From a virus (lineage: Duplodnaviria; Heunggongvirae; Uroviricota; Caudoviricetes), in the IMG/VR virus record IMGVR_UViG_3300037312_000757: a stretch of 64,000 nucleotides of DNA; one strand, given 5' to 3'. The position numbers and the translations under genes were made by a program. How positions within the stretch are numbered: the stretch's first letter is position 1; every line of letters begins with the position of its first letter. This document shows positions 22,226 through 35,518 of this stretch, piece by piece. A model generated the notes under the pieces. The model saw nothing but the letters and a program-made list of their open reading frames with translations, made no database searches and was not told the DNA's origin.

Positions 22226-22262
22226 ATATGACGATGAGCCTAAAGGCTCATGTAAAGAAAGA

Positions 22263-22350: not shown

Positions 22351-22401
22351 AAAACAAAAGAGCCACAGGACATGGCTCTCTTTTAAAACTTGTACTGCTA
22401 C

Positions 22402-22656
22402 TTACTGCGGAACACGCTGCACATGGAACGTGCGCAACACTTTGTTGGGACCGCACGCCATGACAACTTTAAAAATTGCTTGCTGCTTAGTACGCGTATT
22501 GCGGAAGTAGCCAAAACCACATTCAACAATAGTACCGGTGACAGTAACGCGATTTGCACGACTAGATTCAGACAGCTTGATGGTGAACTGCTGTCCAACA
22601 GCTTGGGCACCAATCCGGTTCGCCTTCTCCATCAGTGCTTGATCCGCTGCGTTCAT
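22402..22656 (-). CDS. hypothetical protein
   Basis: GGAG RBS, palindromic promoter. Confidence 0.65.
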   Translation of the reverse strand: MNAADQALMEKANRIGAQAVGQQFTIKLSESSRANRVTVTGTIVECGFGYFRNTRTKQQAIFKVVMACGPNKVLRTFHVQRVPQ

Positions 22657-22675
22657 CGTCTGCTCCGTTTGTTTA

Positions 22676-22714
22676 CCATGTTCAAATGATACATTCACTT
22701 GAACATGGTTGCAA
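22676..22714 (-). promoter_or_regulatory. sigma70-like promoter with long palindrome
   Basis: TTGCAA-N17-TATCAT; CCATGTTCAA..TTGAACATGG. Confidence 0.8.
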
Positions 22715-22720
22715 GAGCTC

Positions 22721-23230
22721 TTAACTATCCAGCACTTTGTTCAACGCAGCAACACGTTCATGCAGGAAGTCGCGTTCGATAACTCGGCTGTCGTATGACA
22801 GTGGGCGTTTGCCCGCTTTGATTGCTTCGATGCGAGCTTGTGCCCTGCGAATCTCTGCTTCCAGCTTTGCTATCTCGTCTGCATCCTCTTTGTCGCACTT
22901 TGCGAATGCTTCGTCGAACTTCTTCTGCAGATACTTGCGGATACCTGCTTCATTGGTTGTCAAGTTTCCGTAGAAACGAGTTCCGTTGCTAATGTCACCC
23001 CACTTACGTCCATCGCGTTGACCGTACAGTTTGCGCTGTTGTTCGTAGTCAAGGCTGAGACGTTTGCTAACGTCAAGCCCAGGGGCAGTGGTGAAGCAAT
23101 AGTCGTCGGCGCTCGTGACAACTTCTTTCTTGAAGAATTGCAGAGTCTGCTTGTAGTGATAGATGTTGTCCCACAGGTCGATGGATTCGAAATTGATCAC
23201 CACATCGCCTACGTTGAACTTGCGCGTCAT
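22721..23230 (-). CDS. hypothetical protein
   Basis: AGGAG RBS. Confidence 0.7.
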   Translation of the reverse strand: MTRKFNVGDVVINFESIDLWDNIYHYKQTLQFFKKEVVTSADDYCFTTAPGLDVSKRLSLDYEQQRKLYGQRDGRKWGDISNGTRFYGNLTTNEAGIRKYLQKKFDEAFAKCDKEDADEIAKLEAEIRRAQARIEAIKAGKRPLSYDSRVIERDFLHERVAALNKVLDS

Positions 23231-23294
23231 GTTGTTCTCCTTGTTTACCATACTCACATGATAAGTTCATATGAACTTGGTAGCAAGGTTTATT

Positions 23295-23380
23295 TGGTAC
23301 CCTGGGAGGGATTTGAACCCTCACGCCTAAAAGGCCACGCGTTCTGAGCACGTGATGTCTACCGGTTCCAACACCAGGGC
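23295..23380 (-). tRNA. tRNA-Leu(CAG)
   Basis: Loop CTCAGAA, long variable arm. Confidence 0.9.
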
Positions 23381-23387
23381 ATTAAAA

Positions 23388-23510
23388 CTATTTTGCGAAT
23401 CGCCAGCCTACACACCACAGGTCAAGTCGCACAAACCATGTTCCGTTGTGTTTGCCGAAACCAAATCGGAGCATACGGTTGTCTTTGTCAAGAGATATTT
23501 TTGTTATCAT
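23388..23510 (-). CDS. small hypothetical protein (40 aa)
   Basis: MITKISLDKDNRMLRFGFGKHNGTWFVRLDLWCVGWRFAK fills inter-tRNA gap. Confidence 0.5.
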   Translation of the reverse strand: MITKISLDKDNRMLRFGFGKHNGTWFVRLDLWCVGWRFAK

Positions 23511-23518
23511 TTTGTTAA

Positions 23519-23596
23519 TGGTGGGTAAGGTGGGATTCGAACCCACAGGCGACTGCTTCTGAGGCAATCAGGTATTCCAATTCCCTTCACTTACCC
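23519..23596 (-). tRNA. tRNA-Leu(CAG), short variable loop
   Basis: Loop CTCAGAA, A73. Confidence 0.85.
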
Positions 23597-23601
23597 GCTA
23601 A

Positions 23602-23678
23602 TGGTGGACCCCAAGGGAATCAAACCCTTCACAGACGCATTGCAAGTGCATCTCGCCACTCTTGGTACATGGGAGCCC
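23602..23678 (-). tRNA. tRNA-Ala(TGC)
   Basis: Loop CTTGCAA, G3:U70. Confidence 0.85.
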
Positions 23679-23686
23679 ATAAAACT

Positions 23687-23763
23687 TGGTCGGGATTGCA
23701 GGACTCGAACCTGCAGCCTCCGGTTTCCAGAACCGGCCGTCTACCAATTGACATTAAACCCCG
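23687..23763 (-). tRNA. tRNA-Pro(TGG), C33
   Basis: Loop TCTGGAA. Confidence 0.85.
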
Positions 23764-23772
23764 AATAAAACT

Positions 23773-23900
23773 TGGTGAGTTTGGGTGGATTCGAACCATC
23801 CTGAGCGCTTTCGTATCGCCTCTTACCATGACATTTCCCCGTGCCTGGACACACCATAAAGATGCAAGCGGGAGTCGAACCTGCTTATGCCTCAAACTCA
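23773..23900 (-). ncRNA. tRNA-like RNA with two T-loop hairpins
   Basis: Acceptor GAGTTTG/CAAACTC-A-CCA; TTCGACT and TTCGAAT hairpins. Confidence 0.75.
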
Positions 23901-23906
23901 TATCAG

Positions 23907-23984
23907 TGGTCGGTGTGGTGGGATTCGAACCCACAAGCATTTGGCTCTCGACCAAATAGGTATACCAATTCCCTTCACACACCG
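23907..23984 (-). tRNA. tRNA-Leu(GAG), short variable loop, C33
   Basis: Loop TCGAGAG, A73. Confidence 0.8.
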
Positions 23985-23992
23985 ATAAAACT

Positions 23993-24092
23993 TGGTGGAT
24001 ACGACGGGGTATTCTCCCGCACATGGGCCCCGCAGGGGCAGGCGCATATTTTGCCCGAGCCGATGTAGTTTTCAGGACTCCCTAACATACCC
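23993..24092 (-). ncRNA. tRNA-like RNA with non-canonical T loop
   Basis: Acceptor GGGTATG/CGTATCC-A-CCA; GCGGG-AGAATAC-CCCGT. Confidence 0.65.
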
Positions 24093-24100
24093 ATAAAACT

Positions 24101-24174
24101 TGGTACCCCAGCAAGGAATCGAACCTTGGTATGCGCCGTGTAAGGACGCCGTTCTACCATTGAACTACAGGGGT
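24101..24174 (-). tRNA. tRNA-Val(TAC)
   Basis: Loop CTTACAC. Confidence 0.9.
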
Positions 24175-24184
24175 GTTGAAAAAG

Positions 24185-24262
24185 TGGAGCGGGTAGGGAG
24201 AGTCGAACTCCGCGATCTTCAGCTTGGAAGGCTGCTGGACGCCCCTTGTCCTGTCTACCCGC
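24185..24262 (-). tRNA. tRNA-Gly(TCC), atypical D arm
   Basis: Loop CTTCCAA, U73. Confidence 0.8.
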
Positions 24263-24271
24263 ATTGAAACT

Positions 24272-24345
24272 TGGTGGGGGCGCTAGGGATTGAACCTAGA
24301 CCTGCTGAGTCAGAGTCAGCCACGCTGCCATTACGCCACGCCCCT
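24272..24345 (-). tRNA. tRNA-Gln(CTG)
   Basis: Loop CTCTGAC, 1:72 mismatch. Confidence 0.9.
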
Positions 24346-24354
24346 ATTAAAACA

Positions 24355-24475
24355 TGGTGCCTAGAACTGGGATCGAACCAGTGTCCTCGAAACAAACCAA
24401 GAACCACCGCGAGACGCAGGTGCGTACACCTGTACGGGTTCAGGATTTCGTGCTCTACCTCTGAGTTACCTAGGC
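24355..24475 (-). ncRNA. tRNA with ~53-nt anticodon loop
   Basis: Normal acceptor, D and T arms; stem CGAAA/TTTCG encloses long insert. Confidence 0.75.
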
Positions 24476-24482
24476 AAGGTAT

Positions 24483-24559
24483 TGGTGCCGCCCCGCGGAT
24501 TCGAACCGCGCTCTCCGGATTTTCAGTCCAGCGCTTTCACCAAGATTAGCTTGAGCGGC
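24483..24559 (-). tRNA. tRNA-Phe(GAA)
   Basis: Loop CTGAAAA. Confidence 0.9.
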
Positions 24560-24621
24560 ATTAAATTCTGTTTCCGGTTACGGGTTCCGGATGCTGCCCT
24601 ATCATTACAGCCGGTTTAAAA

Positions 24622-24696
24622 TGGTAGGTCGTAAGGGAGTCGAACCCCTGTCATCGCGTTCGTAGCACGATATTCTTTCCGTTGAACTAACGACCC
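24622..24696 (-). tRNA. tRNA-Arg(ACG)
   Basis: Loop CTACGAA. Confidence 0.9.
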
Positions 24697-24702
24697 ATTA
24701 AC

Positions 24703-24775
24703 TGGACCCACGTGGTGGAGTTGAACCACCGTAATTCGGCTTCGTAGACCAAACACCAGCTCCGCTGGACGTGAG
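24703..24775 (-). tRNA. tRNA-Arg(ACG), shortened D arm
   Basis: Loop CTACGAA; CCAGC-GGA-GCTGG D region. Confidence 0.7.
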
Positions 24776-24785
24776 ATTAAAAACT

Positions 24786-24861
24786 TGGGGTGACTAGTGG
24801 GAATCGAACCCACATCTCCGGATTCACAGTCCAGAACTCTAACCATTGAGCTATAGCCACC
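24786..24861 (-). tRNA. tRNA-His(GTG)
   Basis: Loop CTGTGAA, G-1/C73. Confidence 0.92.
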
Positions 24862-24883
24862 ATCGACTAAACAACCTTGAAAC

Positions 24884-25001
24884 TGGAGTGGGCGCCGGGA
24901 TTCGAACCCGGGTCTCGTCCTTGGAATGGAAGAATGATTGCTGAACGTTTCCTTGTCAGGAAAGCTTTTCTTACGCGTGCTAACCACTACACCACGCCCA
25001 C
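24884..25001 (-). ncRNA. CCA-ending tRNA body with CAGCAA handle hairpin replacing the anticodon
   Basis: GTGGGCG/CGCCCAC-T-CCA; insert GCTTTCC-TGACAA-GGAAACGTTCAGCAA. Confidence 0.8.
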
Positions 25002-25019
25002 ATTTAAAACTAAAATCAC

Positions 25020-25094
25020 TGGGGTGAGTTGGAGAATCGAACTCCAGTCGCCTGGTTCACAGCCAAGCATTCTAACCACTGAACTAATCTCACC
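25020..25094 (-). tRNA. tRNA-His(GTG)
   Basis: Loop CTGTGAA. Confidence 0.9.
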
Positions 25095-25104
25095 ATTGAA
25101 ACCG

Positions 25105-25434
25105 TTACAGCTTGTCAGGATATTGCGCATCGATATGATCGATGTACGCAAGCGGACTCATACCTGGTTCAAGGTCATGAACCTTGCTGAACCCGTTTTC
25201 CTTCGTGACAAGTGCATCCTCAGGCTTGACTGCACCAGCATACTTTCTGAAACCAGGCTTGTTCATCAACTTGCCTGTTGCTGGGTCAATCGACCCCCAA
25301 TCCGTCCAGTCAGTTTTGCTCTGACCGTCAATCGGTTCTACGAAATACGACTTACCAGTACGTTGACTTGTTACAATGAAGCGTCCGGTTTCGTCTGTAT
25401 TTGTGAGAAACCGTTTGCGTAGGTCGGGGTCCAT
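25105..25434 (-). CDS. hypothetical protein
   Basis: AAGGA RBS. Confidence 0.7.
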   Translation of the reverse strand: MDPDLRKRFLTNTDETGRFIVTSQRTGKSYFVEPIDGQSKTDWTDWGSIDPATGKLMNKPGFRKYAGAVKPEDALVTKENGFSKVHDLEPGMSPLAYIDHIDAQYPDKL

Positions 25435-25461
25435 ATTGGAATCCTTCTTGTTAGAGTTAAT

Positions 25462-25536
25462 TGGTGCCCTCGAGGTGAATTGAACACCTGTATCCGACAT
25501 ACCAAGTCGGCGTAATTGCCACTATACGACAAGGGC
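25462..25536 (-). tRNA. tRNA-Thr(GGT)
   Basis: Loop TTGGTAT. Confidence 0.88.
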
Positions 25537-25541
25537 GTTTC

Positions 25542-25952
25542 TTATTTCCAAGGAGTTGGTGGAGGAACAACAGCATTTTCTGGGGCTGGAACTCCAACAC
25601 TACCAAAGTCTGCTGGTGAACAAATCTCCAGGTACTCCATGTCAGGCGAGTAATCATACAAATAATGCACTAGCCCGGGAACTTGATGCACAACATCGCC
25701 TGCTTCAACAAGCGTAATTGTGTCGCCATACATGAACTTGGCCCAGCCTTTGTTCATGATGACAATTTGAAAATCTAAAACATGCTGATGCCAACCAGTA
25801 CCTTCTGTAGGTGGTTTGTTGGCTTTCACCAAGTGCGCAATAACCTTACCGTCAGTTGCGTCCTTGATACCTAAATCCTTGTACAGGAAAAAATCACGCA
25901 GTCCGTCACCTTTCCATTCAGTGTCGGCTGGTTTTACATGCGAAAATTTCAT
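25542..25952 (-). CDS. cupin-domain protein
   Basis: GWHQH..FQIVIM.KGW..F and H-x-L cupin motifs. Confidence 0.8.
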   Translation of the reverse strand: MKFSHVKPADTEWKGDGLRDFFLYKDLGIKDATDGKVIAHLVKANKPPTEGTGWHQHVLDFQIVIMNKGWAKFMYGDTITLVEAGDVVHQVPGLVHYLYDYSPDMEYLEICSPADFGSVGVPAPENAVVPPPTPWK

Positions 25953-26012
25953 GAGTTCTAACCTCAAAAAGTTAAATTATCATTATAAACTTCTTGGTTA
26001 GAACTACAATAT

Positions 26013-26087
26013 TGGCGCACCCTACAGGAATCGAACCTGTATCCAACTCTTAGGAGGAGCTGATTCTATCCGTTGAACTAAGGGCGC
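26013..26087 (-). tRNA. tRNA-Arg(CCT)
   Basis: Loop CTCCTAA. Confidence 0.9.
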
Positions 26088-26093
26088 GGCAGC

Positions 26094-26444
26094 TCAAACA
26101 ATCACTTGTTCAAGTTTATTCCACACATCATCGTACAATACGTAAAGCTTGCTTCCATCTACTTCGATTGGAATCGCTTTACTACCAAGACCAGCCATCC
26201 CCGCAACCTCACCAGGTATGACCATACGCCCTGTCACTTTGATGATGGCCGGCGCACGAATGATCCTGATAACATTGTCGATCACGTTACCATCAGCATC
26301 TTTTTTACACGCTGGGTGGTAGATTCCCACTCGTACTTGAATATCTTTCTTGGTCTTCCAGACCGTACCTTTCTTCAGTAATGAACGAATACTACCGGTC
26401 ATGATAAACCTCAAAGGAAAATCATATGATACGGTAGCATTCAT
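26094..26444 (-). CDS. hypothetical protein (start uncertain)
   Basis: ORF between tRNAs. Confidence 0.6.
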   Translation of the reverse strand: MNATVSYDFPLRFIMTGSIRSLLKKGTVWKTKKDIQVRVGIYHPACKKDADGNVIDNVIRIIRAPAIIKVTGRMVIPGEVAGMAGLGSKAIPIEVDGSKLYVLYDDVWNKLEQVIV

Positions 26445-26461
26445 TTAATGTCAAACAAAAC

Positions 26462-26536
26462 TGGTACCCGAAGTTGGAATCGAACCAACGACCTACGCGA
26501 TGTCAACGCGTTGCACTACCGCTGTGCTATCCGGGT
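26462..26536 (-). tRNA. tRNA-Val(GAC)
   Basis: Loop TTGACAT. Confidence 0.9.
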
Positions 26537-26543
26537 GTTGAAA

Positions 26544-26620
26544 CTGGAGCGTCATGAGAGGATCGAACTCCCGACCTGCTGGTTCGTAGCCAACTGCTCT
26601 GTCCACTGAGCTAATGACGC
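26544..26620 (-). tRNA. tRNA-Arg(ACG)
   Basis: Loop CTACGAA. Confidence 0.9.
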
Positions 26621-26628
26621 ATAAATCT

Positions 26629-26703
26629 TGGCATCTCGTATGGGAGTCGAACCCATCTCTGCAGATTGAAAGTCTACTGACCTAACCGATAGTCGAACGA
26701 GAT
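26629..26703 (-). tRNA. tRNA-Glu(TTC)
   Basis: Loop CTTTCAA. Confidence 0.9.
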
Positions 26704-26710
26704 ATAAAAC

Positions 26711-26785
26711 TGGAGTGCCATACGGGAGTTGAACCCGTCTTCCCACCTTGAAAGGGTGGTGTCCTAACCGATAGACGAATGACAC
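26711..26785 (-). tRNA. tRNA-Glu(TTC)
   Basis: Loop CTTTCAA. Confidence 0.9.
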
Positions 26786-26794
26786 ATAAAAATC

Positions 26795-26869
26795 TGGAGC
26801 CCCATGTGAGAATCGAACTCACATTTCTGGATTACGAAACCAGTGTTCTAGCCATTAAACTAAAGGGGC
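26795..26869 (-). tRNA. tRNA-Thr(CGT)
   Basis: Loop TTCGTAA, 31:39 mismatch. Confidence 0.75.
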
Positions 26870-26874
26870 AATTA

Positions 26875-27129
26875 TTACATATCAAAAAGAATATGACTCA
26901 CAAATGCGACAAGTTGTCCTTGTTGCAAGCCAGATCCTAATTTGTGACCAAAAACTGCTGAAAGATTCTTTATGGTTCCAGTTGTACTGCCAACCTGGAC
27001 TATACCATTATTTTGTGAAGCTTGCTGCAAATCGCTAAACACTTGGTCAATGCTAACCTGTTGTGTTGCGATTAACTCAAAGTGATTTCCTTGTTGCTGC
27101 GTTACTACGTTGGATGGAACTTGATACAT
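26875..27129 (-). CDS. hypothetical protein (Q-rich)
   Basis: AGGAG RBS. Confidence 0.65.
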   Translation of the reverse strand: MYQVPSNVVTQQQGNHFELIATQQVSIDQVFSDLQQASQNNGIVQVGSTTGTIKNLSAVFGHKLGSGLQQGQLVAFVSHILFDM

Positions 27130-27170
27130 AATTATCTCCTTTTGTGGAGATAATATACCAACCACCAATG

Positions 27171-27890
27171 TCAGTCAAATTTCATTTTTCTACCAACCTG
27201 CCATCCATTTTGCAGGTATGATTCTAAATCTGTTTTGGCAATCTTCTTTGCCGCTTTCTCTACGATTGAGAATATCCAACAAGACCCAAACTGAGAATTT
27301 TTCTCACCTTGCTGGTGTTTGTTTTTCTCAAACGTTTTTGTTCTTTTCAGCTTTGCTTCTGAAGTGTGTGCTTTCCTTGAAGCTTCAATTTGCCGCGTTC
27401 CGCCTTTAACAAACAGGGTGTGAGCAATTGTTCCGTCGGCATGTAAGTCAGTTAAACGCTTTGCTGACGCATCCAGATGCTCCTGGTAACGTTTGGTGTC
27501 TGATTTGAACTTCTGCATACGTGCAGGGCCACCGACCTTACCAGCGTCACTTGCGGTCTTTCTTTTAAGCTCTGGGTTTTCATTTATATGATCAAACCCA
27601 CCTTCCCCACCCACTTTTAAGTTCATACAAAGCGGATCAGTCAGTTGCTCTTCGCAAACTAACTCAGCTTCTCGAGCTTTCAAGGATTTGCGATCAGGTA
27701 AAAACTCTAGAATCTCACAAACATGATTATCTTTACCATGTTTGTTAATCGAATACCAAAGCCTTTTACCGGATCCCACGTAACCGTCATTAAGGTCATC
27801 TGTGGAATGCATACCGATGTAATACTTACCAGTTACTATACACGTTGTTTTGTATATGTAATGGTATTTTCTTCTTGCTGCTTGACGCAT
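27171..27890 (-). CDS. GIY-YIG homing endonuclease (Seg-like)
   Basis: YIYKTTCIVTGKYYIGMH..YVGSG, E..E, MNLKVGG; GCTAAATA upstream. Confidence 0.88.
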   Translation of the reverse strand: MRQAARRKYHYIYKTTCIVTGKYYIGMHSTDDLNDGYVGSGKRLWYSINKHGKDNHVCEILEFLPDRKSLKAREAELVCEEQLTDPLCMNLKVGGEGGFDHINENPELKRKTASDAGKVGGPARMQKFKSDTKRYQEHLDASAKRLTDLHADGTIAHTLFVKGGTRQIEASRKAHTSEAKLKRTKTFEKNKHQQGEKNSQFGSCWIFSIVEKAAKKIAKTDLESYLQNGWQVGRKMKFD

Positions 27891-27942
27891 TTGCCAAATC
27901 TCCTTTCGGAGTATTTAGCGGAAATGCGTTGATTTTGTTCAG

Positions 27943-28017
27943 TGGCGTCCGATACGGGAGTCGAACCCGTCTTTCCAGGTTGAAAGCCTAGCGACCTAAC
28001 CGATAGTCGAATCGGAC
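27943..28017 (-). tRNA. tRNA-Glu(TTC)
   Basis: Loop CTTTCAA. Confidence 0.9.
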
Positions 28018-28026
28018 ATGAAATCT

Positions 28027-28102
28027 TGGTACTGTCAGTGGGACTTGAACCCAACATTTGCTGATTGAAAGTCAGCGGTCCTAACCTTTAGACGATGACA
28101 GT
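28027..28102 (-). tRNA. tRNA-Glu(TTC)
   Basis: Loop CTTTCAA. Confidence 0.88.
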
Positions 28103-28107
28103 ATTAA

Positions 28108-28229
28108 CAGGATGGTATTTTTTACGTGCTCCCATTACACCACAGCGGGACCCTACCCCACTGCCGGGACTCGAACCCGGACCTTTCTTTTTTCCAGAAG
28201 AATAAAATAAATTTGCTGAAACCATCCAA
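28108..28229 (-). ncRNA. circularly permuted tRNA mimic with CAGCAA handle
   Basis: GGATGGTTTCAGCAA, then T arm, closed acceptor CAGTGGG/CCCGCTG, D arm, then ACCATCCTG. Confidence 0.85.
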
Positions 28230-28235
28230 GGGTTC

Positions 28236-28325
28236 TGGCAGTGGGAATGGGATTCGAACCCATGGGGCTTTTTAGGACCCGACGCCTTTCCAAGACGTTG
28301 CAATAGACCGCTCTGCCATCCCACT
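28236..28325 (-). tRNA. tRNA-Ser(GGA)
   Basis: Loop TTGGAAA, long variable arm, G73. Confidence 0.9.
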
Positions 28326-28360
28326 ATAAATTCAAATCACCAAGCCACGAAGAAAGGCGA

Positions 28361-28552
28361 TTACGATTGTGCTGCGAAACCTTCTTCACGTGCGAATGCC
28401 ACGACGCCACGGACTGCTTCGAGTGCGAACTCACCATGGAGTCGCTCCACGCGTTCTGCGGGGGTGGTCTCACGTCCAAGAGTCTCAGGGCGAGCCAGTA
28501 CGAGCGTATGCAACGGCAGTGCGGAAACGCGTGCAAATGTCAGCGTCGTCAT
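28361..28552 (-). CDS. hypothetical protein
   Basis: AGGAG RBS. Confidence 0.5.
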   Translation of the reverse strand: MTTLTFARVSALPLHTLVLARPETLGRETTPAERVERLHGEFALEAVRGVVAFAREEGFAAQS

Positions 28553-28595
28553 GATTGCTCTCCTTGAGAAAATGGTTAAAAGGTACTACGTTAAT

Positions 28596-28687
28596 TGGCG
28601 GTAGCGGAAGGATTTGAACCTTCGGGGCTTTTTAGGACCCGCTAGTTTTCGAGGCTAGTGCAATAAACCGGACTCTGCCACGCTACC
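28596..28687 (-). tRNA. tRNA-Ser(CGA)
   Basis: Loop CTCGAAA. Confidence 0.9.
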
Positions 28688-28694
28688 ATAAAAC

Positions 28695-28895
28695 TTACTT
28701 GGTGTCTTTCGATTGCTCTTCGCGCTGTGCGCTAATGAAAATGCAACCTTCAGCACCACATCCACAGACGATATGTCGTTCACGTACAATCTTGTCTGCG
28801 TCTTTGATTTCACCACGGTTACGAAGTGAATTGAAAACTTCCGTTGTATGGCGTGCTGCTGCCATATCTTTCTGCGATAAGCGTCTTCCGCTCAT
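28695..28895 (-). CDS. hypothetical protein (CGCG..GC)
   Basis: ORF between Ser tRNAs. Confidence 0.55.
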   Translation of the reverse strand: MSGRRLSQKDMAAARHTTEVFNSLRNRGEIKDADKIVRERHIVCGCGAEGCIFISAQREEQSKDTK

Positions 28896-28912
28896 ATCGT
28901 TCTCGTTATTAG

Positions 28913-29002
28913 TGGAGGAAGGTAAGGGATTCGAACCCTTGGGGCTTTTTAGGACCCGACTGTTTAGCAAACAGTTACAATAGACCGCTCTGCCAACCTT
29001 CC
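28913..29002 (-). tRNA. tRNA-Ser(GCT)
   Basis: Loop TTGCTAA. Confidence 0.9.
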
Positions 29003-29012
29003 ATTTAAAACT

Positions 29013-29108
29013 TGGTAGTCCCCCAGGGATTCGAACCCTGCCGTCGCAGCCCATCTAGCCGCTCTCCCGAGGATATAAATCTCAGCCGCTCAACCAGAGC
29101 TAAGGACC
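29013..29108 (-). tRNA. tRNA-Ile(TAT)-like with long variable arm
   Basis: GGTCCTT acceptor, A73, loop TTTATAT. Confidence 0.65.
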
Positions 29109-29119
29109 ACTGCAAAAAT

Positions 29120-29197
29120 TGGAGCTCCGAGCTAGATTCGAACTAGCGGTTTTACTGCTTTGCAGGCAGTTGCCTTGGACCTCTCGGCCATCGGAGC
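29120..29197 (-). tRNA. tRNA-Cys(GCA)
   Basis: Loop CTGCAAA. Confidence 0.9.
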
Positions 29198-29206
29198 GTT
29201 GAAAAC

Positions 29207-29282
29207 TGGAGCGGGTAACGGGGTTCGAACCCGTGACGTCTTGCTTGGCAAGCAAGTACTCTACCAACTGAGCTACACCCGC
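29207..29282 (-). tRNA. tRNA-Gly(GCC)
   Basis: Loop TTGCCAA, U73. Confidence 0.92.
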
Positions 29283-29293
29283 ATGGTGTATAA

Positions 29294-29356
29294 CTGGATG
29301 CACTTTAACGAGGTCAGATTAACGGTCTGGTGTTTGAAGTTGCTGTAGGCATCCAA
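29294..29356 (-). ncRNA. minimal CAGCAA-handle RNA
   Basis: GGATGCCTACAGCAA..GTGCATCCAG. Confidence 0.8.
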
Positions 29357-29362
29357 AACTGA

Positions 29363-29414
29363 CAGGAAGCACTTAGTCATGTAAGAAATGAGTAAGATTG
29401 CTGTAGGCTTCCTA
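29363..29414 (-). ncRNA. minimal CAGCAA-handle RNA
   Basis: GGAAGCCTACAGCAA..GTGCTTCCTG (compensatory change). Confidence 0.8.
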
Positions 29415-29426
29415 AAACTTGAATTC

Positions 29427-29681
29427 TTATAACAATCAGCACTAGGTTTGCAGTTTACCGCAGTGGAGGAATTAACTCACGGTGATCAAGCCGTTACTTC
29501 ATTCCATTCTCACGACCAAACTCAGGACCAAACAAGGAGGCGCGTCGGGGGCTCCCGAAACTCGTAAGCGGCTTAACTTCAGTGTGATACACTGTCCACA
29601 CATACCTACCCTTGCCCTCTGAGCGCTTTACCACTTGCACTGCAAAAACGGCCAGTTACTTCCTAACGCTGACTGCTATAA
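29427..29681 (-). ncRNA. ~255-nt structured RNA with 20-bp closing stem
   Basis: TTATAGCAGTCAGCGTTAGG pairs with CCTAGTGCTGATTGTTATAA; promoter TTGCAT-N16-TATCAT at 29687-29714. Confidence 0.7.
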
Positions 29682-29722
29682 AAACTATGATACACTTTGT
29701 TGCCATTTATGCAACAGAAAAC

Positions 29723-29814
29723 TGGCAGAGCTGCAAGGAATCGAACCCTATTGACTACCACCCACCGATTATTAAAGTCGCTGGTTTTGGAGACCAGTAG
29801 CGGGGAACAGCTCT
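29723..29814 (-). tRNA. tRNA-Trp(CCA) lacking D arm, expanded variable region
   Basis: AGAGCTG/CAGCTCT-G-CCA; loop CTCCAAA; only 10 nt between acceptor and anticodon stem. Confidence 0.75.
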
Positions 29815-29840
29815 GTTGAAAACTTGATACTACTAAAACT

Positions 29841-29917
29841 TGGTAGGGGCGGAGAGATTCGAACTCTCGACTTCCTGATTAAGAGTCAGGCACTCTGGCC
29901 AACTGAGTTACACCCCC
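29841..29917 (-). tRNA. tRNA-Lys(CTT)
   Basis: Loop CTCTTAA. Confidence 0.9.
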
Positions 29918-29924
29918 ATTGAAA

Positions 29925-30055
29925 TACCATTTGATGTGATCCCCATCACATCACCTGTTGAACACGATTCTGAAGCTACTTGCACATATAACGCTGAGTA
30001 GGCGTCACGTGCTTTTACTTACCGTGGGTGATCAGGTTAACCATATCAAATGGTA
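29925..30055 (-). ncRNA. ~130-nt stem-closed RNA
   Basis: TACCATTTGAT terminal inverted repeat. Confidence 0.55.
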
Positions 30056-30067
30056 CTTACGGAAACT

Positions 30068-30144
30068 TGGTGGGGGCACTGGGATTCGAACCCAAGCCTG
30101 ACGGATTAAAAGTCCGCTGTGCTAACCGCTAACACCATACCCCC
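30068..30144 (-). tRNA. tRNA-Lys(TTT)
   Basis: Loop CTTTTAA. Confidence 0.9.
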
Positions 30145-30150
30145 ATTGAC

Positions 30151-30225
30151 TGGTTGGGGCAGTGGGGATCGAACCCACGACCTTGAGATTAAGAGTCTCA
30201 TGCTCTACCGCTGAGCTATACCCCA
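30151..30225 (-). tRNA. tRNA-Lys(CTT)
   Basis: Loop CTCTTAA. Confidence 0.9.
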
Positions 30226-30245
30226 GTAAACTGGACTACAGAATC

Positions 30246-30380
30246 AGTAAGCTGGTACTTTCAATCAAGTACAGTGTACAGCTTACGACTCCCATGACTA
30301 CATTTTTGTCTGGGAGTCGTCGAACTTAATCTGCTACGACTCCCAGAAGTTTCGATGATTTTCGTTTCATCACAAACTCC
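30246..30380 (-). promoter_or_regulatory. leader-peptide RNA switch (MKRKSSKLLGVVAD, 30326-30370)
   Basis: AGGAG RBS; mutually exclusive 1:2, 2:3 and 3:4 helices. Confidence 0.65.
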
Positions 30381-30571
30381 TAAAGAGAAAATTAAATTAA
30401 AGTGTCCGAAAAATGTACACAAATTTCGGACAAAACCAACAACAAAGCCTGCATTTCCATCAGAGCACTTGCAAAAGCAAATGGTGATTCACGCAACTAG
30501 ACGTGATGGACTGGTTTAGCTCAAAGGCCAACCTAGGAGTATCAGGTCCCACCTATGGTTATTGGTAAACT

Positions 30572-30648
30572 TGGTTGCGCGAAGCAGGAGTCGAACCTGA
30601 TATCACCAGCTTATGAGACTGGTATGTAAACCGTTTCACTCTCGCGCG
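30572..30648 (-). tRNA. tRNA-Met(CAT), initiator-like C1:A72
   Basis: Loop CTCATAA. Confidence 0.8.
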
Positions 30649-30656
30649 AAACTTGT

Positions 30657-30737
30657 TGGTACCCCGCAAGAGATTCGAACTCTCACCCGAAGACCGGAAC
30701 CTAAATCCGGCGCGTCTACCAATTTCGCCAACGGGGC
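30657..30737 (-). tRNA. tRNA-Leu(TAG)
   Basis: Loop TTTAGGT. Confidence 0.9.
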
Positions 30738-30772
30738 ATCAATGCAGACCTACTAACGTCTGCACGAAATAC

Positions 30773-30850
30773 TGGTTGCGGAGAGATGGATTCGAACCAT
30801 CGACCTCCAGCTTATGAGGCTGGCGAGCTACCGGGCTGCTCTATCCCGCA
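30773..30850 (-). tRNA. tRNA-Met(CAT), fMet-like D arm
   Basis: AGAGCAGCCCGGTAGCTCG; loop CTCATAA. Confidence 0.85.
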
Positions 30851-30859
30851 ATTGAATTC

Positions 30860-30935
30860 TGGTTGTCAGTACTGGACTTGAACCAGTGACCTATCGCTTA
30901 TCAAGCGAGTGCTCTACCAACTGAGCTAACCGACA
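30860..30935 (-). tRNA. tRNA-Ile(GAT)
   Basis: Loop TTGATAA. Confidence 0.9.
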
Positions 30936-30939
30936 ATTG

Positions 30940-31168
30940 TCGCATCGCACTCGCTAAGGGCAACATTAAGCATCCACGCGCTAGAACAAGTTCCTGGCGT
31001 ATTCTCCGAATGTCATCCCTTACCAGCCATCATGCGCTGCAATGCATTTGCGCATAATGGACGAGATGCTACGTCCCTAACTGTAACCAAGTCTATTACC
31101 AACAAAACGTAGCAATACTGTTGGCACACATTGGCTCTGTTACAGCCCAGCAAGTTACCCTGCTAGTT
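30940..31168 (-). ncRNA. putative ~230-nt multi-hairpin RNA
   Basis: Promoter TTGCAA-N16-TACAAT (31175-31202), no ORF, several hairpins. Confidence 0.45.
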
Positions 31169-31210
31169 TGTTGCATTGTACAGCTTTTGCCATACTTTGC
31201 AAACACAACA

Positions 31211-31284
31211 TGGTTGTTCCAGAAAGAATCGAACTTTCGTTAATGGCTTATCAAGCCACCGTTCTACCATTGAACTATGGAACA
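31211..31284 (-). tRNA. tRNA-Ile(GAT)
   Basis: Loop TTGATAA. Confidence 0.88.
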
Positions 31285-31294
31285 ATTGAATTCT

Positions 31295-31369
31295 TGGTGG
31301 TTATAGATGGAGTCGAACCATCATTACCGGCTTATGAGACCAGTGTCCTAGCCATTGAACGATATAACC
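31295..31369 (-). tRNA. tRNA(CAT), elongator Met or Ile2
   Basis: Loop CTCATAA, G1:C72. Confidence 0.8.
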
Positions 31370-31373
31370 ATAA

Positions 31374-31429
31374 CTGGATGCACTTACGTTTTCACCGAAA
31401 GAAAGTATAAGATTGCTGTAGGCATCCAA
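31374..31429 (-). ncRNA. minimal CAGCAA-handle RNA
   Basis: GGATGCCTACAGCAA..GTGCATCCAG. Confidence 0.8.
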
Positions 31430-31449
31430 AACGGGTATTCGACATCAAA

Positions 31450-31557
31450 CTACCAAAAGTAGCGATACAACCAACCACTTTCTTGTTTATCAGTCATACA
31501 TTCGATTGGCGCTAATTCCCACACATCATTTTCAGTTCTGCGTCGAAATAACTGCAT
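31450..31557 (-). CDS. small protein (35 aa)
   Basis: AGGAG RBS; MQLFRRRTENDVWELAPIECMTDKQESGWLYRYFW. Confidence 0.5.
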   Translation of the reverse strand: MQLFRRRTENDVWELAPIECMTDKQESGWLYRYFW

Positions 31558-31575
31558 ACCAATCTCTCCTAAATG

Positions 31576-31650
31576 TGGCTCCAGAACCAGGGATCGAACC
31601 TGGGACCAACGCATTAACAGTGCGCTGCTCTACCGCTGAGCTATTCTGGA
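31576..31650 (-). tRNA. tRNA-Asn(GTT)
   Basis: Loop CTGTTAA. Confidence 0.92.
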
Positions 31651-31751
31651 ATTGAAACAGGACTGCATCGCGTACTCAGGCATTCGACACATTCAAATGC
31701 TTTCCTTTCCTTACTCTGCGGAATACCGCTAGAGATGATGCAGCAAAAACT

Positions 31752-31830
31752 TGGCTCCGCACACTGGGATCGAACCAGTCTAGCCACTGATTAACAGTCA
31801 GGTCCATGCACCTTGCTCGGATTCTGCGGA
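31752..31830 (-). tRNA. tRNA-Asn(GTT), atypical D arm
   Basis: Loop CTGTTAA. Confidence 0.82.
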
Positions 31831-31849
31831 ACTGTCATACAACAAAACT

Positions 31850-31925
31850 TGGTGCCTGGAGACGGAATCGAACCGCCGACACCCTGATCTTCAGTCAAGT
31901 GCTCTACCAACTGAGCTACCCAGGC
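31850..31925 (-). tRNA. tRNA-Phe(GAA), G37
   Basis: Loop CTGAAGA. Confidence 0.9.
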
Positions 31926-31996
31926 AAAGACCATAACGATGAGAACCTAACACACGCCTTAGCAGTGCGTACCCGCTCAACGTTACGATCAAAATT

Positions 31997-32071
31997 TGGC
32001 GATGCGTAGGGGATTCGAACCCCTGACTCCCGGCTAGACAGGCCAGTACTCTACCGCTGAGTTAACGCACC
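31997..32071 (-). tRNA. tRNA-Asp(GTC), U37
   Basis: Loop CTGTCTA. Confidence 0.88.
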
Positions 32072-32128
32072 ATGCGGGAGCAGCTTCTACTCCCCGCGCC
32101 CTGCTGTCGAAACAACAGGACTAAAACT

Positions 32129-32203
32129 TGGCGACCCTACGGAGAATCGAACTCCGTTCCCCAGATAGACAGTCTAGGATAATAACCAATATAAGATAGG
32201 GCC
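32129..32203 (-). tRNA. tRNA-Asp(GTC), U37
   Basis: Loop CTGTCTA. Confidence 0.85.
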
Positions 32204-32211
32204 GTGAAACT

Positions 32212-32299
32212 TGGTGAAGTGTGAAGGAATCGAACCTAATAACCAACCACCCCAGTATCATGGTAACGGGTTTACAATCCGCTCTGGGGAACACACTCC
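32212..32299 (-). tRNA. tRNA-Tyr(GTA) lacking D arm
   Basis: GGAGTGT/ACACTTC-A-CCA; loop TTGTAAA; GTTCCCCAGA replaces D arm. Confidence 0.75.
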
Positions 32300-32315
32300 A
32301 TTAAAACTTGTGCAA

Positions 32316-32468
32316 TTTGCTTTGCTCATCCGGGTGGGATCGAACCACCTTTTTATCCTCGAACATTTAGGCGCATTCGATAGCAACACGCTGGAATTAC
32401 GCTACCTTTAGCAGTCTTCTTCTGCGCTTCGGCCGAATAACCTGCGCAGTGCGGATGATAAAAGCAAA
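32316..32468 (-). ncRNA. ~155-nt RNA with T arm and extended acceptor-like stem, no CCA
   Basis: TCATCCG/CGGATGA; GGTGG-TTCGATC-CCACC. Confidence 0.65.
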
Positions 32469-32479
32469 CTACTGAAACT

Positions 32480-32563
32480 TGGTGGAGGATCCAGGATTCG
32501 AACCTGGGAACCCGAAGGAACGGATTTACAGTCCGCCGGCTTTAACCACTCACCCAACCCTCC
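32480..32563 (-). tRNA. tRNA-Tyr(GTA)
   Basis: Loop CTGTAAA, long variable arm. Confidence 0.92.
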
Positions 32564-32632
32564 ATTGCAACTTTACAACAAATGAAACACAAGTGCCTGC
32601 ATAGCTGTTATCCTCTTGTTTCATTTTACATC

Positions 32633-32722
32633 TGGCGGAAGCGGTGAGATTCGAACTCACGGACCTTTTTAGGGATCGACGGTTTTCAAGACCGCTGCCT
32701 TAACCCACTCAGCCACGCTTCC
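32633..32722 (-). tRNA. tRNA-Ser(TGA)
   Basis: Loop CTTGAAA. Confidence 0.92.
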
Positions 32723-32730
32723 ATTAATTC

Positions 32731-32804
32731 TGGCAGGAGCGCCAGGGTTCGAACCTGAACTACGTGAGTCAAAGTCACGGGTGCTACCATTACACTACGC
32801 TCCA
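32731..32804 (-). tRNA. tRNA-Gln(TTG)
   Basis: Loop CTTTGAC. Confidence 0.9.
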
Positions 32805-33067
32805 ACAGCGCTTACAAAGCTGATTACAACCACGGGTTTGAACCGCGATCAACTTAGTAAGCAACCTGCACAACGGTTCAGCACAAACATCATGCTGCTG
32901 CGTCATGCAGTTGTGTCTAGGCCTAATTGCCCTAGACTGACGGATTTTATACATTCGTTTGCAAACGAATCTTCATCCTCGCCGCCGCCCATTTAGCCAG
33001 TTTTTACGTGCGCGCCTGGGATCTCGTTTCCCGTCTACACGTTACTACAAAGAACATTGATGCCTTA

Positions 33068-33154
33068 AAACACGAAACCCCGGAAACTTTCGTTTACCGG
33101 GGTGCCTTGTTGTTGAGACTGCGCTAACTTATGCGCTGCCTCCTTGGCACCCCT
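33068..33154 (-). terminator. attenuator: terminator with overlapping antiterminator
   Basis: CCCCGG-TAAACGAAAGTTT-CCGGGG-TTTCGTGTTTT; GGGGTGCC in leader pairs with GGCACCCC. Confidence 0.85.
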
Positions 33155-33269
33155 TCCAATCTGACAGACTAATGCTATTCTTCTCACCATTACCGAGCCA
33201 ATAAGCTACAGGCATGGACGCTTTCTGTCCTTGCTGCTGCTCTGGTCGATAAAAGTTAAATGAATGCAT
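33129..33269 (-). CDS. attenuator leader peptide (46 aa)
   Basis: GAGG RBS; MHSFNFYRPEQQQGQKASMPVAYWLGNGEKNSISLSDWKGCQGGSA. Confidence 0.75.
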   Translation of the reverse strand: MHSFNFYRPEQQQGQKASMPVAYWLGNGEKNSISLSDWKGCQGGSA

Positions 33270-33327
33270 TTCGTCCTCAAAAAGGAAGTTAGTTAAACAA
33301 CACGCCGTTCATTACAGCGTGCATCGT

Positions 33328-33356
33328 ACTCTAAATCTACTGCTTTGCGAAGTCAA
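33328..33356 (-). promoter_or_regulatory. sigma70 promoter of leader/tRNA array
   Basis: TTGACT-N17-TAGAGT. Confidence 0.75.
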
Positions 33357-33423
33357 CAACTTTTTGTGACAACGCGGAAATCTTTTTGTTGCGCGCAACA
33401 CTGTTCGCTGCAACATGTTTCAC

Positions 33424-33539
33424 ATTCTATTTAGCAAACTATGGCAAGTCAATAACTTTTTAACCATCTTGCTAAACTTTTTGCAAACGCTGCATCAGCA
33501 ACGTGTTCACATTCTATTTAGCAAACTGACATCAGTTAA
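33424..33539 (-). promoter_or_regulatory. two repeated sigma70 promoters overlapping GCTAAATA
   Basis: TTGACT-N17-TAGAAT and TTAACT-N17-TAGAAT; 20-bp direct repeat cacattctatttagcaaact. Confidence 0.7.
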
Positions 33540-33626
33540 TAACTTTGTTGCCACTTTTTGCTGCACTGCTCTGTTCCGCAGCGCATGTTCGTACTATACG
33601 GCATGCCATTCCAGGCGTCAAATATA

Positions 33627-34643
33627 TTATTCTGTAACCTGGTAATGACTTGTGACAATGCCCTTCTCTTCATGCCCTCTCTTGTGCTCAGTACGCCACC
33701 AGCGCACTCCGCCACACTTGAGCTTGCATTCCCAATGCAAGGGCTTCGTCTCTTCCCATTCATGCAAGCAACCGCTGAAACGCGCTTCCTTGTTATGACA
33801 GAAGTGCCCACGCACATCATGTAGTCTACGGAAAACACCCACACCTGCTATAAGTTTTCGCAAACGTGGTATTGGGTTCAGCTTGATCTTGATGACACTG
33901 TGCTTGAGCAGCGGTGCAGCACGTCTTCCTATCATGGTCTGTGCGCGCCCAACCTCTGTTGTATATATGTCCTTGCTCGCTCTATTAAGGAAGAGCAGAA
34001 TCGCAATAATGTTGCGCAGATCACCAGCTAGGCTTCCCGCCATCGCAGTGACTAGTTCTTCTTCATATTCCTTAGTGCATTGCAACTTGATTGAATGATT
34101 GCGACGAAGTGCGCGAAGACCTTCCTTATCATGTTCTTCAATTAGCTGGTTAGCCGCAGCACCCCAGAACATTTGATCAAGCCCCAAACGCGAGATATGG
34201 GCCTTGTGACAGAAATCAAGTTCCTCTTGAGGAGTCCACGGTTGAAACAAACGGTACTCGAATTGAATGCAGACTGGGTTTTCATTTGCTTCGCTCGGAT
34301 TGCCAGCTACTACTCGCGCAACGGGACCAGCAATCAGATATCCCACTCGCTCATCACTGTTACTGGCCGAAGGTTCACCAGTCACGACTTCGTATAAGAG
34401 GCGAGCATTGAACTCGATCCAAGTTTGCTTGAAGGGTGGGATTGCGAAGTCTTGAGCATCCGCAATGATGCGGGGCATTGTGCGTATGAGTTCGCCAATG
34501 TAGCGAACAGCGTCGTCATCAAGTACGAATCGGTGAGCCTGACGAATGTGATCGCACGTGGTTTGCACGAAGTGCGGCGCATCAATGCGCGTCTTCTTAG
34601 CAGTCGCGAGATAAAAGTCTGCGAGTAACGGCTGTCGCTTCAC
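33627..34643 (-). CDS. hypothetical protein, R-x-H-x-V-x-G-H family (paralog of 20627-21613)
   Basis: RLHDVRGHF..WW..EHKRG..EKGIV...YQV. Confidence 0.75.
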   Translation of the reverse strand: MKRQPLLADFYLATAKKTRIDAPHFVQTTCDHIRQAHRFVLDDDAVRYIGELIRTMPRIIADAQDFAIPPFKQTWIEFNARLLYEVVTGEPSASNSDERVGYLIAGPVARVVAGNPSEANENPVCIQFEYRLFQPWTPQEELDFCHKAHISRLGLDQMFWGAAANQLIEEHDKEGLRALRRNHSIKLQCTKEYEEELVTAMAGSLAGDLRNIIAILLFLNRASKDIYTTEVGRAQTMIGRRAAPLLKHSVIKIKLNPIPRLRKLIAGVGVFRRLHDVRGHFCHNKEARFSGCLHEWEETKPLHWECKLKCGGVRWWRTEHKRGHEEKGIVTSHYQVTE

Positions 34644-34756
34644 CGGAGACTCCGCTCATATGATTACTCATTGTAACTTCATATGAGCGGAAAGTCTAGC
34701 GTTAGATTTTAAAAAGAACATGATCTAACGTAGAATCAACATACAACTATAAGAAC

Positions 34757-35386
34757 GTGGCCAAAGCCACGCATATCATGACTAGAGAAGAAAAAAGACT
34801 ACGAGCAGTAGCCAATGCTCAAAAGAAAGCCGACGAATTGGCCGCATACCTGGCTAACCCAAAGCTTTGTCGAAACTGTAAAGTTCAGATTGATTTCAAG
34901 AAGCGCAACACAAATGAATATTGCTCAAGTAGGTGCTCTTCTGCAGTCAACAGCTCATTGCGATCAACACGTATCAAGGCAAATAAGAAATCTTTCGAAT
35001 GCATTAATTGCGGAACCTTAAAAGTATATAAGAGTGAAAAACCTGGTAGGTATTGCTCAAATACCTGCCAACATCAATACCAAGAAAAGCAGCAGTTCGC
35101 ATTAGTTGAAGCTGGTAAAGCTAGTAACTCCGGTCAAGTCAAACGATATCTGTTAGCAAAATACGGCAATATTTGTATGGACTCTGAATGCTGCTGGAAT
35201 CAATCGAAGCGCCCAGTAGTAGTTGAGCTCGAACACCAGGATGGTAATTCAGATAACAACACTCTCGAAAATTGCATCTTGTTGTGCCCAAACTGCCACA
35301 GCTTGACGCCAACATACAAGAACAAAAACATGGGAAATGGTAGAGCGTATCGCAGAGCACGATACGCAGAAGGAAAGAGCTACTGA
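34757..35386 (+). CDS. HNH endonuclease with Zn-finger repeats
   Basis: LEHQDGNSDNNTLENCILLCPNCHS; inverted relative to neighbours. Confidence 0.88.
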   Translation: MAKATHIMTREEKRLRAVANAQKKADELAAYLANPKLCRNCKVQIDFKKRNTNEYCSSRCSSAVNSSLRSTRIKANKKSFECINCGTLKVYKSEKPGRYCSNTCQHQYQEKQQFALVEAGKASNSGQVKRYLLAKYGNICMDSECCWNQSKRPVVVELEHQDGNSDNNTLENCILLCPNCHSLTPTYKNKNMGNGRAYRRARYAEGKSY

Positions 35387-35433
35387 AAATGACGATGAGC
35401 AGCCTAGGCTGCTCATCTAAATTCGCAAATCAG

Positions 35434-35518
35434 TGGTGCCGGCTGTGAGACTCGAACTCACGATGGGTTTCCCCGCCGGATTACAAATCCGGTGCAATAG
35501 CCACTATGCGAAACCGGC
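35434..35518 (-). tRNA. tRNA-Thr(TGT) with long variable arm
   Basis: Loop TTTGTAA. Confidence 0.85.

Follow-up and report, generated by a model that had tools for sequence, protein, structure and literature searches.

The window analysed here, a stretch of 64,000 nucleotides, is part of a complete phage genome of 523,836 bp, which carries direct repeats at its termini and encodes a T4-like capsid protein. By that capsid protein, its closest cultured relatives are Sinorhizobium phage Phosso (80% identity) and Agrobacterium phage Atu_ph07 (70% identity). About 50 tRNA genes form an array on the minus strand at 21983-35518 of the window. Three of them, all read from the minus strand, follow in the order given by an earlier note on this DNA: tRNA-Lys(CUU) at 30225-30151, tRNA-Lys(UUU) at 30144-30068 and another tRNA-Lys(CUU) at 29917-29841. 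The first is the gene that we propose to be directly gated by the leader in front of it. For the third tRNA-Lys(CUU) no evidence of gating was found, its leader lock amounting to only -0.8 kcal/mol. It is separated from tRNA-Lys(UUU) by a 150-nt spacer (29918-30067, minus strand) that folds into one long irregular hairpin (-47.6 kcal/mol). The spacer is kept in the related contigs L308 (134 identities), L306 and L310, which suggests an unannotated structured RNA or a processing signal.

The genome carries RNA ligases of the T4 Rnl1 type and of the Rnl2 type (G000:C1:54078-54683 and 447080-447535, respectively); RtcB was not found in it. A permuted tmRNA lies at G000:C1:182959-183462 and a tRNA with anticodon UCA at 190515-190591. 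In the window, four tRNA-like genes with large insertions or remodelled arms (24355-24475, 24884-25001, 29726-29815 and 32215-32300) were detected by Rfam models and missed by ARAGORN. Directly upstream of the tRNA array, at 33269-33068 (minus strand), a 46-codon ORF led by a Shine-Dalgarno sequence is followed by a GC-rich hairpin with a U-rich tail; this looks like a conventional leader-peptide attenuator serving the whole array. At 5018-5040 (minus strand), a strong hairpin in the leader of an isolated tRNA-Arg(UCU) covers the 5' strand of the tRNA (-10.4 kcal/mol); it sits directly after the stop of a normal gene with no leader peptide in sight. No homologues were found for a neighbouring protein of 63 aa.

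The leader ORF and its pairing segments

The first tRNA-Lys is preceded on the minus strand by a leader ORF of 14 codons (30326-30370), with its Shine-Dalgarno sequence at 30381-30377, its ATG at 30370 and a TAA at codon 15 (30328-30326). As the earlier note had described, codons 2, 4 and 7 (30367-65, 30361-59 and 30352-50) are AAA. The lysine content is modest at 3/13 codons (P about 0.03, or about 0.01 when real genes, whose starts are Lys-rich, serve as the background); AAA is the minor Lys codon of the phage genome, with a 32% share against 68% for AAG. No sigma-70 promoter was found in front of the leader. Just upstream of its ribosome-binding site, 30432-30403 (minus strand) forms a 9-bp hairpin followed by an A/U-rich stretch; the hairpin is conserved in the relative L433, with changes in the loop only.

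The segments that pair within the element all lie on the minus strand. Segment 0 (30361-30387) holds the Shine-Dalgarno sequence and start region and pairs with codons 4-10. The resulting helix 0:1 (-19.3 kcal/mol) buries the Shine-Dalgarno sequence and the start codon, occupies the first half of segment 1 and is predicted to represent the state without a ribosome. Segment 1 (30336-30347, codons 8-12) starts right after the last Lys codon. Segment 2 (30309-30320) has either segment 1 or segment 3 as its partner, while segment 3 with its extension (30279-30296; core 30294-30285, extension 30286-30279) can pair with segment 2 or, over its full length, with segment 4, an anti-D-arm strand at 30254-30240 that the earlier note had drawn as 30254-30247. 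Helix 1:2 is 12 bp long, one more than was first given, and contributes -21.9 kcal/mol, with helices 2:3 and 3:4 at -21.0 and -22.3 kcal/mol. The core of 3:4 coexists with 2:3 in the minimum-energy fold, so that exclusion between these two helices is confined to the outer part of 3:4.

The fold of the element has a z-score of -5.0, with 0/200 shuffled sequences as stable. Furthermore, a direct repeat of at least 10 nt with its reverse complement in between occurs in just 2 of 10,474 genome windows of 150 nt, both of which cover the element. The element is real and selected; its ORF, its helices, the lock complementarity described below and their conservation are directly observed. Rfam returned no match on 30226-30400, either at the gathering score or at E values up to 10. 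The stretch from segment 3 to 30232 was also considered as a CCA-ending tRNA-like RNA and rejected, having no acceptor partner and uncompensated changes in L433.

In agreement with the earlier note, no U-tract intrinsic terminator was found at the element, and no U run follows 3:4. Rho-dependent termination, which that note had offered as a possible output, finds no footing in the sequence: the 100 nt after the leader stop are highly structured and contain 21 C vs 22 G, with no C-over-G bias and none of the C-rich, unstructured character of a rut region.

The antisense lock and its modelled response to the ribosome

When the tRNA is included in the fold, the lock strand at 30241-30231 pairs with the first ten bases of tRNA-Lys(CUU), and 30248-30243 can extend the pairing into the D arm. 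This anti-acceptor lock spans 30248-30216 (minus strand) and at -10.6 kcal/mol is locally the joint strongest among the 59 tRNA leaders of the genome. The acceptor-stem probability of tRNA-Lys(CUU) is 0.94 for the tRNA alone and 0.00 with its own 30-nt leader. The earlier note had named RNA processing as its other possible output. Of its alternatives this comes closest, but the antisense lock on the 5' strand of the tRNA was absent from the note, as was hairpin 0:1; bases 30248-30231 lie partly outside the region that it described (30246-30380).

The lock strand is the end of a longer block (30231-30275, minus strand) that aligns as a degenerate antisense copy of the 5' two-thirds of the tRNA. 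Its duplex with the first 48 tRNA bases is worth -28.6 kcal/mol, and 20/1000 shuffles are as good. The anti-anticodon part (30266-30257) lies inside a 6-bp hairpin of the block, and the distal part of the block taken alone is marginal in the window (52/1000 shuffles as good). In L433, where the first tRNA has the anticodon UUU, the antisense duplex reaches -33.2 kcal/mol and is equalled by 1 of 1000 shuffles; the antisense strand fits the UUU version of the tRNA better than the CUU version of the window. Once the 3' acceptor strand of the first tRNA is freed, the 5' strand of the neighbouring tRNA-Lys(UUU) can in turn pair with it. This possible knock-on lock of the second tRNA appears in unrestricted folding and is not seen with a span limit.

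The effect of translation was modelled by holding the bases under the ribosome unpaired (assumed footprints of 11-15 nt) and computing the cost of forming the acceptor stem, the modelled states being secondary-structure equilibria. In local folding the cost behaves as a step function of the A-site codon: 0.5-0.7 kcal/mol at codons 2-6, 2.5 kcal/mol at Lys7 and 3.0-5.7 kcal/mol beyond it, from codon 9 to the stop. Lys2 and Lys4 are the codons that matter in the model, Lys7 lying on the flip point. The cost likewise steps at or just after the second Lys in L433, L308 and L306. In local folding, a ribosome at Lys2/Lys4 gives a modelled acceptor probability of about 0.55, which falls to 0.03 or less once the ribosome has read through or when none is loaded. 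With pairing spans of 80-100, the window element gives 0.55-0.57 for a ribosome at Lys4, no more than 0.02 for one at codon 10 and 0.01 for one at the stop (0.006 with no ribosome); for the three ribosome positions the values for L433 are 0.92, at most 0.01 and 0.04. A long footprint at the stop codon lowers the cost (2.3 kcal/mol in the window, 0.7 kcal/mol in L433).

At span 90, the switch is abolished when pairing is forbidden to segment 1, segment 2, the 5' part of segment 3 or the lock, and is left intact when it is forbidden to the linker; as modelled, this dissection traces a chain running through 1, 2, 3 and 4 to the lock. Forbidding segment 1 pairing abolishes the modelled switch under every setting. 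With no span limit, the relay effect is only 1.4-2.1 kcal/mol, the acceptor stem is mostly unformed in both states (0.014 vs 0.000), and the switch survives a block on segment 2 or on the 5' part of segment 3. The response is specific to the tRNA: placed behind the window leader, 0/56 other tRNAs switch as much (2.1 kcal/mol vs a median of 0.0). Swap tests between leaders and tRNAs, in which the first 10 tRNA nucleotides were used, gave no significant result (P 0.3-0.6).

On these grounds we consider it fairly probable that the element is a ribosome-sensing switch for Lys-tRNA shortage, predicted to gate the folding and maturation of pre-tRNA-Lys and not its transcription. The folding model predicts three states and their polarity; translation of the leader, stalling, RNase P dependence, decay and the trigger are what we infer around it. 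With no ribosome loaded, 0:1 would hide the start and take up part of segment 1, 2:3 would form and the tRNA would be locked. With Lys-tRNA working, a ribosome reading through would strip segment 1, allowing 2:3 to form and blocking the outer part of 3:4, whereupon the antisense strand 30248-30231 would zip onto the acceptor 5' strand and the D arm. The locked precursor would misfold, presumably remain uncut by RNase P and then be degraded. RNase P needs a folded acceptor/T arm in its substrate, which is why the locked precursor might escape it. Should AAA decoding fail, through starvation or cleavage of the host tRNA-Lys(UUU), the ribosome would wait at Lys2/Lys4. Helix 1:2 could then form, segment 3 would fold over segment 4, the lock would weaken and the cloverleaf would be free to form.

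The sensor codons are AAA, yet the directly gated tRNA-Lys(CUU) of the window reads AAG only. This mismatch may reflect a recent anticodon exchange or a knock-on lock of the neighbouring UUU tRNA. A gated AAG-reading tRNA may also be useful in itself, because 68% of the phage Lys codons are AAG.

Syntenic relatives and the proposed polarity of the switch

Relatives were recovered using two neighbouring proteins as anchors, and not by the leader pattern. Six of them (L306, L308, L309, L310, L311 and L429) have a leader of exactly 14 codons, with its stop at codon 15, before a tRNA-Lys(UUU). In all six, a Lys-x-x-Lys lies directly before segment 1, with the Lys pair at codons 5 and 8; the pair is invariant and the flanking codons vary. 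Across these six, the window and L433, 15/16 codons of the Lys-x-x-Lys are AAA, compared with the 32% share of AAA in the genome. Helices 0:1, 1:2 and 2:3 of the six relatives are within about 6 kcal/mol of each other and are built from different letters, and helix 0:1 (-18 to -25 kcal/mol) is found in 7/7 of the other 14-codon leaders. The part of the earlier proposal in which a Lys-codon leader with exclusive helices controls tRNA-Lys is supported by this retention of leader length, Lys-x-x-Lys and helices.

The relatives bear on the possibility that the element senses the general state of the ribosome (slow initiation or early elongation, or any stall) and not lysine, the AAA codons being there because A-rich unstructured starts favour initiation. 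AAA is indeed enriched at codons 2-7 of the ordinary genes of the phage (5.4% vs 1.7%), and in the model a stall at any of codons 2-6 opens the lock. However, the Lys pair is invariant amid differing flanking codons, and such leaders were found before tRNA-Lys and not before other tRNAs. We regard this general sensor as distinctly unlikely, and a lysine-specific one as the better description.

The relatives also speak to polarity. In 5/6 of them segment 3 is itself the 5' strand of tRNA-Lys(UUU), paired with segment 2 over 12-15 bp; in L311 this pairing to the tRNA is weaker and partly indirect. Since segment 3 is the 5' end of the tRNA in these relatives, helix 2:3 corresponds to the locked OFF state and helix 1:2 to the free ON state. 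This runs against the classic trp-type attenuator logic of the earlier note, as there is no terminator, the relatives' 2:3 buries the tRNA 5' end and the modelled ON state is 1:2. A trp-like reading would have a stall at Lys7 favour 2:3 (ON), and full translation favour 3:4 followed by Rho-dependent termination or a nuclease cut. The geometry does resemble trpL, in that the leader has 14 codons and ends in segment 1; Lys7 adjoins this segment, and a ribosome that has reached the stop can overlap the beginning of segment 2. Besides the lack of a U-tract or a C-rich unstructured rut region, however, 2:3 coexists with the core of 3:4, and in the model 2:3 strengthens the lock. A trp-like polarity thus strikes us as very unlikely. 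The earlier note identified the sensor and the target correctly; its account of the output and the polarity was wrong or incomplete, the polarity having probably been inverted.

The window element shares synteny, the stop at codon 15, the Lys-x-x-Lys and helices 0:1, 1:2 and 2:3 with the 14-codon leaders. Its segment 3 lies 77 nt from the ATG, compared with 81-85 nt for the tRNA 5' end in the five direct-lock relatives. It departs from the direct-lock type in that segment 2 pairs with segment 3 while a separate antisense strand locks the tRNA; after segment 3 come the antisense block and then an additional tRNA-Lys. The tRNA-Lys(UUU) at 30144-30068, second of the three, is identical at 77/77 positions to the directly locked tRNA of L308 and L309. 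The element is most likely a derived relay variant of the 14-codon tRNA-Lys lock leaders.

L433 has the same long (relay) form, being identical at 152/156 nt, with neighbouring genes 68-78% identical. Its Lys7 codon is AAG in place of AAA, which keeps the lysine and, through a G-U pair, helix 0:1. It is the only homologue of the relay form, and two of its four differences weaken the lock; with one homologue and four differences, the relay form has no covariation support. A comparison of 30225-30068 with L433:20534-20691 revealed a reciprocal exchange of anticodons, the first tRNA being CUU in the window vs UUU in L433 and the second UUU vs CUU. The first tRNA differs between the two at 2/75 positions, including the wobble base.

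The differences in L433 also bear on a second ORF of 19 codons (30295-30236) that runs through segments 3 and 4 and which, if translated by coupling, might remove or cover the lock. The window and L433 both keep this frame open, and among the four differences between them one changes stop to stop. Against this, the ORF has no Shine-Dalgarno sequence, its start is buried in 2:3, it is absent from all direct-lock relatives and another of the differences is non-synonymous; we consider its involvement highly improbable.

A further reading is that the relay is vestigial or leaky, the switch having been inherited from direct-lock ancestors. After a 70-nt antisense insertion and the anticodon exchange, the lock would have become near-constitutive or be overcome by tertiary folding of the tRNA, so that translation matters little. 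The weak coupling and ambiguous dissection in unrestricted folding would fit this, as would the mismatch between sensor codon and gated anticodon. The region moreover looks mosaic, given the identity of the second tRNA to the first of L308, and the high identity to L433 could stem from recent exchange. Yet the switch is specific to its own tRNA, matches in size the median for the direct six-codon leaders discussed below (2.05 kcal/mol), is sharp in local folding and is stronger in L433, where the anticodon matches. We therefore hold a vestigial relay to be unlikely, though less so than the other alternatives, and retain the ribosome-sensing lock as the more probable reading.

In L430, L432 and L434-L438 the site is absent or beyond the end of the sequence. 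The regions of Phosso and Atu_ph07 that were covered show no such leader, and tRNA calling in the Atu_ph07 stretch gave no tRNA-Lys. Named phage records gave matches to tRNA bodies only. Exact-pattern scans for the element returned one unrelated match or none, and a pattern scan of metagenomes yielded only chance matches among the matches listed.

Comparison with known leader-peptide controls

Leader-peptide transcription attenuators include trpL, hisL, pheL, thrL and pheM of pheST. Translational attenuators are exemplified by ermCL-ermC and cat, and Rho-dependent leader-peptide controls by tnaC and mgtL. The pheL attenuator is described in PMC3082878. Like the trpL type, the element has a short Shine-Dalgarno-led ORF with cognate codons and exclusive helices 1:2, 2:3 and 3:4 that overlap the ORF end and are set by ribosome position, is OFF by default without translation, and would feed back on the supply of the cognate aminoacyl-tRNA. 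Unlike that type, it has no U-tract terminator, it would act by base pairing to the 5' strand of the tRNA itself, and its target is a tRNA and not an enzyme operon. Its polarity, as modelled, is also reversed: an early stall would keep 1:2 and hence the ON state, and a stall at the cognate codons would not favour 2:3 and read-through.

As with ermCL-ermC and cat, stalling on the leader would decide whether a downstream functional strand is sequestered, with no stop to transcription. The sequestered strand here is an acceptor stem and not a ribosome-binding site, and the signal would be a codon and not antibiotic-peptide arrest. In ermC a stall covering segment 1 switches on, whereas in the element a stall upstream of segment 1 would do so. 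With tnaC and mgtL the element shares a leader ORF and the absence of an intrinsic terminator; it differs from them in having no C-rich, unstructured rut-like stretch and in possessing a specific antisense lock.

Cleavage of tRNA-Lys(UUU) by PrrC and its repair by T4 Rnl1 are described in PMC10264068. The element resembles the phage tRNAs that counter anticodon nucleases in tRNA species, in the likely conflict and in the presence of an Rnl1-type ligase, which fits a tRNA conflict. In the passages covered, PMC10264068 treats what phage tRNAs do, while the element would be a sensor gating the tRNA. The earlier note's link to PrrC serves as context only: this nuclease cleaves tRNA-Lys(UUU) (PMC10264068), and nothing ties the element to PrrC specifically.

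Six-codon leaders of the form Met-Lys-Arg-x-Lys-Leu/Arg, from uncultured phages, precede tRNA-Lys in 48/51 viral contigs. The pattern used to find them itself fixes the peptide and most of the Lys codons, so that only tRNA-Lys adjacency and the fold count as results. Of 44 such leaders, 39 model the same polarity as the window and none the reverse; covariation in the lock of this family rests on one pair in 8/37 sequences, probably a single event. Like the window element, the six-codon leaders place a Lys-x-x-Lys immediately ahead of segment 1, lock tRNA-Lys with an anti-acceptor strand and model with the same polarity; most of them also agree with it in gene order (Lys(CUU), then Lys(UUU)). 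The two differ in that the window leader has 14 codons and two extra relay steps. R1, the covariance model of the six-codon family, matches L284 at 94.9 bits and does not match the window element, and the six-codon type is therefore an analogue or a very distant relative.

The literature covered, which leaves out most subscription papers, gave no account of a leader peptide controlling how a tRNA folds, and a lock whose output is tRNA folding is apparently unpublished. More broadly, giant phages may possess a class of switches that sense codons and act on pre-tRNA folding, a post-transcriptional feedback loop releasing tRNA-Lys only on failed Lys decoding as an inducible reserve against tRNA-cleaving defences. 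Here, a three-helix lock would have grown into a cascade of four steps, in which an antisense copy of the tRNA, roughly 45 nt long, is folded away and two tandem tRNAs may be clamped. We judge the case for this wider proposal to be evenly balanced. The reason for phage tRNAs has been debated for decades, and codon compensation and counter-defence predict different regulation. If the proposal is true, release of tRNA-Lys only on failed AAA decoding would speak for tRNAs that stand in, on demand, for host tRNA that has been destroyed or depleted, and the question would become testable on a construct of 230 nt. tRNA maturation would be a third output of leader-peptide control beside termination and translation initiation, and a single tRNA in a long polycistronic array would be regulated alone, with about 35 downstream tRNAs still transcribed.

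Other ORFs adjoining tRNA-Lys genes were observed. In the cultured Xanthomonas phage Xoo-sp13 (L440, MN047793.1; about 417-570), an unannotated tRNA-Lys(CUU) follows a 14-codon Lys/Tyr-rich ORF with no clear Shine-Dalgarno sequence; a hairpin there is able to bury the tRNA 5' end, and the modelled switch is weak (1.6 kcal/mol at the stop). In unrelated phages, Lys/Arg-rich ORFs of 43-48 codons run up to or into tRNA-Lys(UUU) (L017:4873, L020:8549 and L042 at about 4470-4582, the latter partly read), possibly another coupling of Lys decoding to this tRNA. At L307:11045-11141 a 21-codon ORF runs through a single hairpin that buries the 5' end of a tRNA-Lys, and at L431:1190-1242 a 7-codon leader with a direct lock precedes a tRNA-Lys. 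Additionally, a Lys/Arg-rich ORF in L278 (about 14870-14720, minus strand) reads into a tRNA-Lys-like gene.
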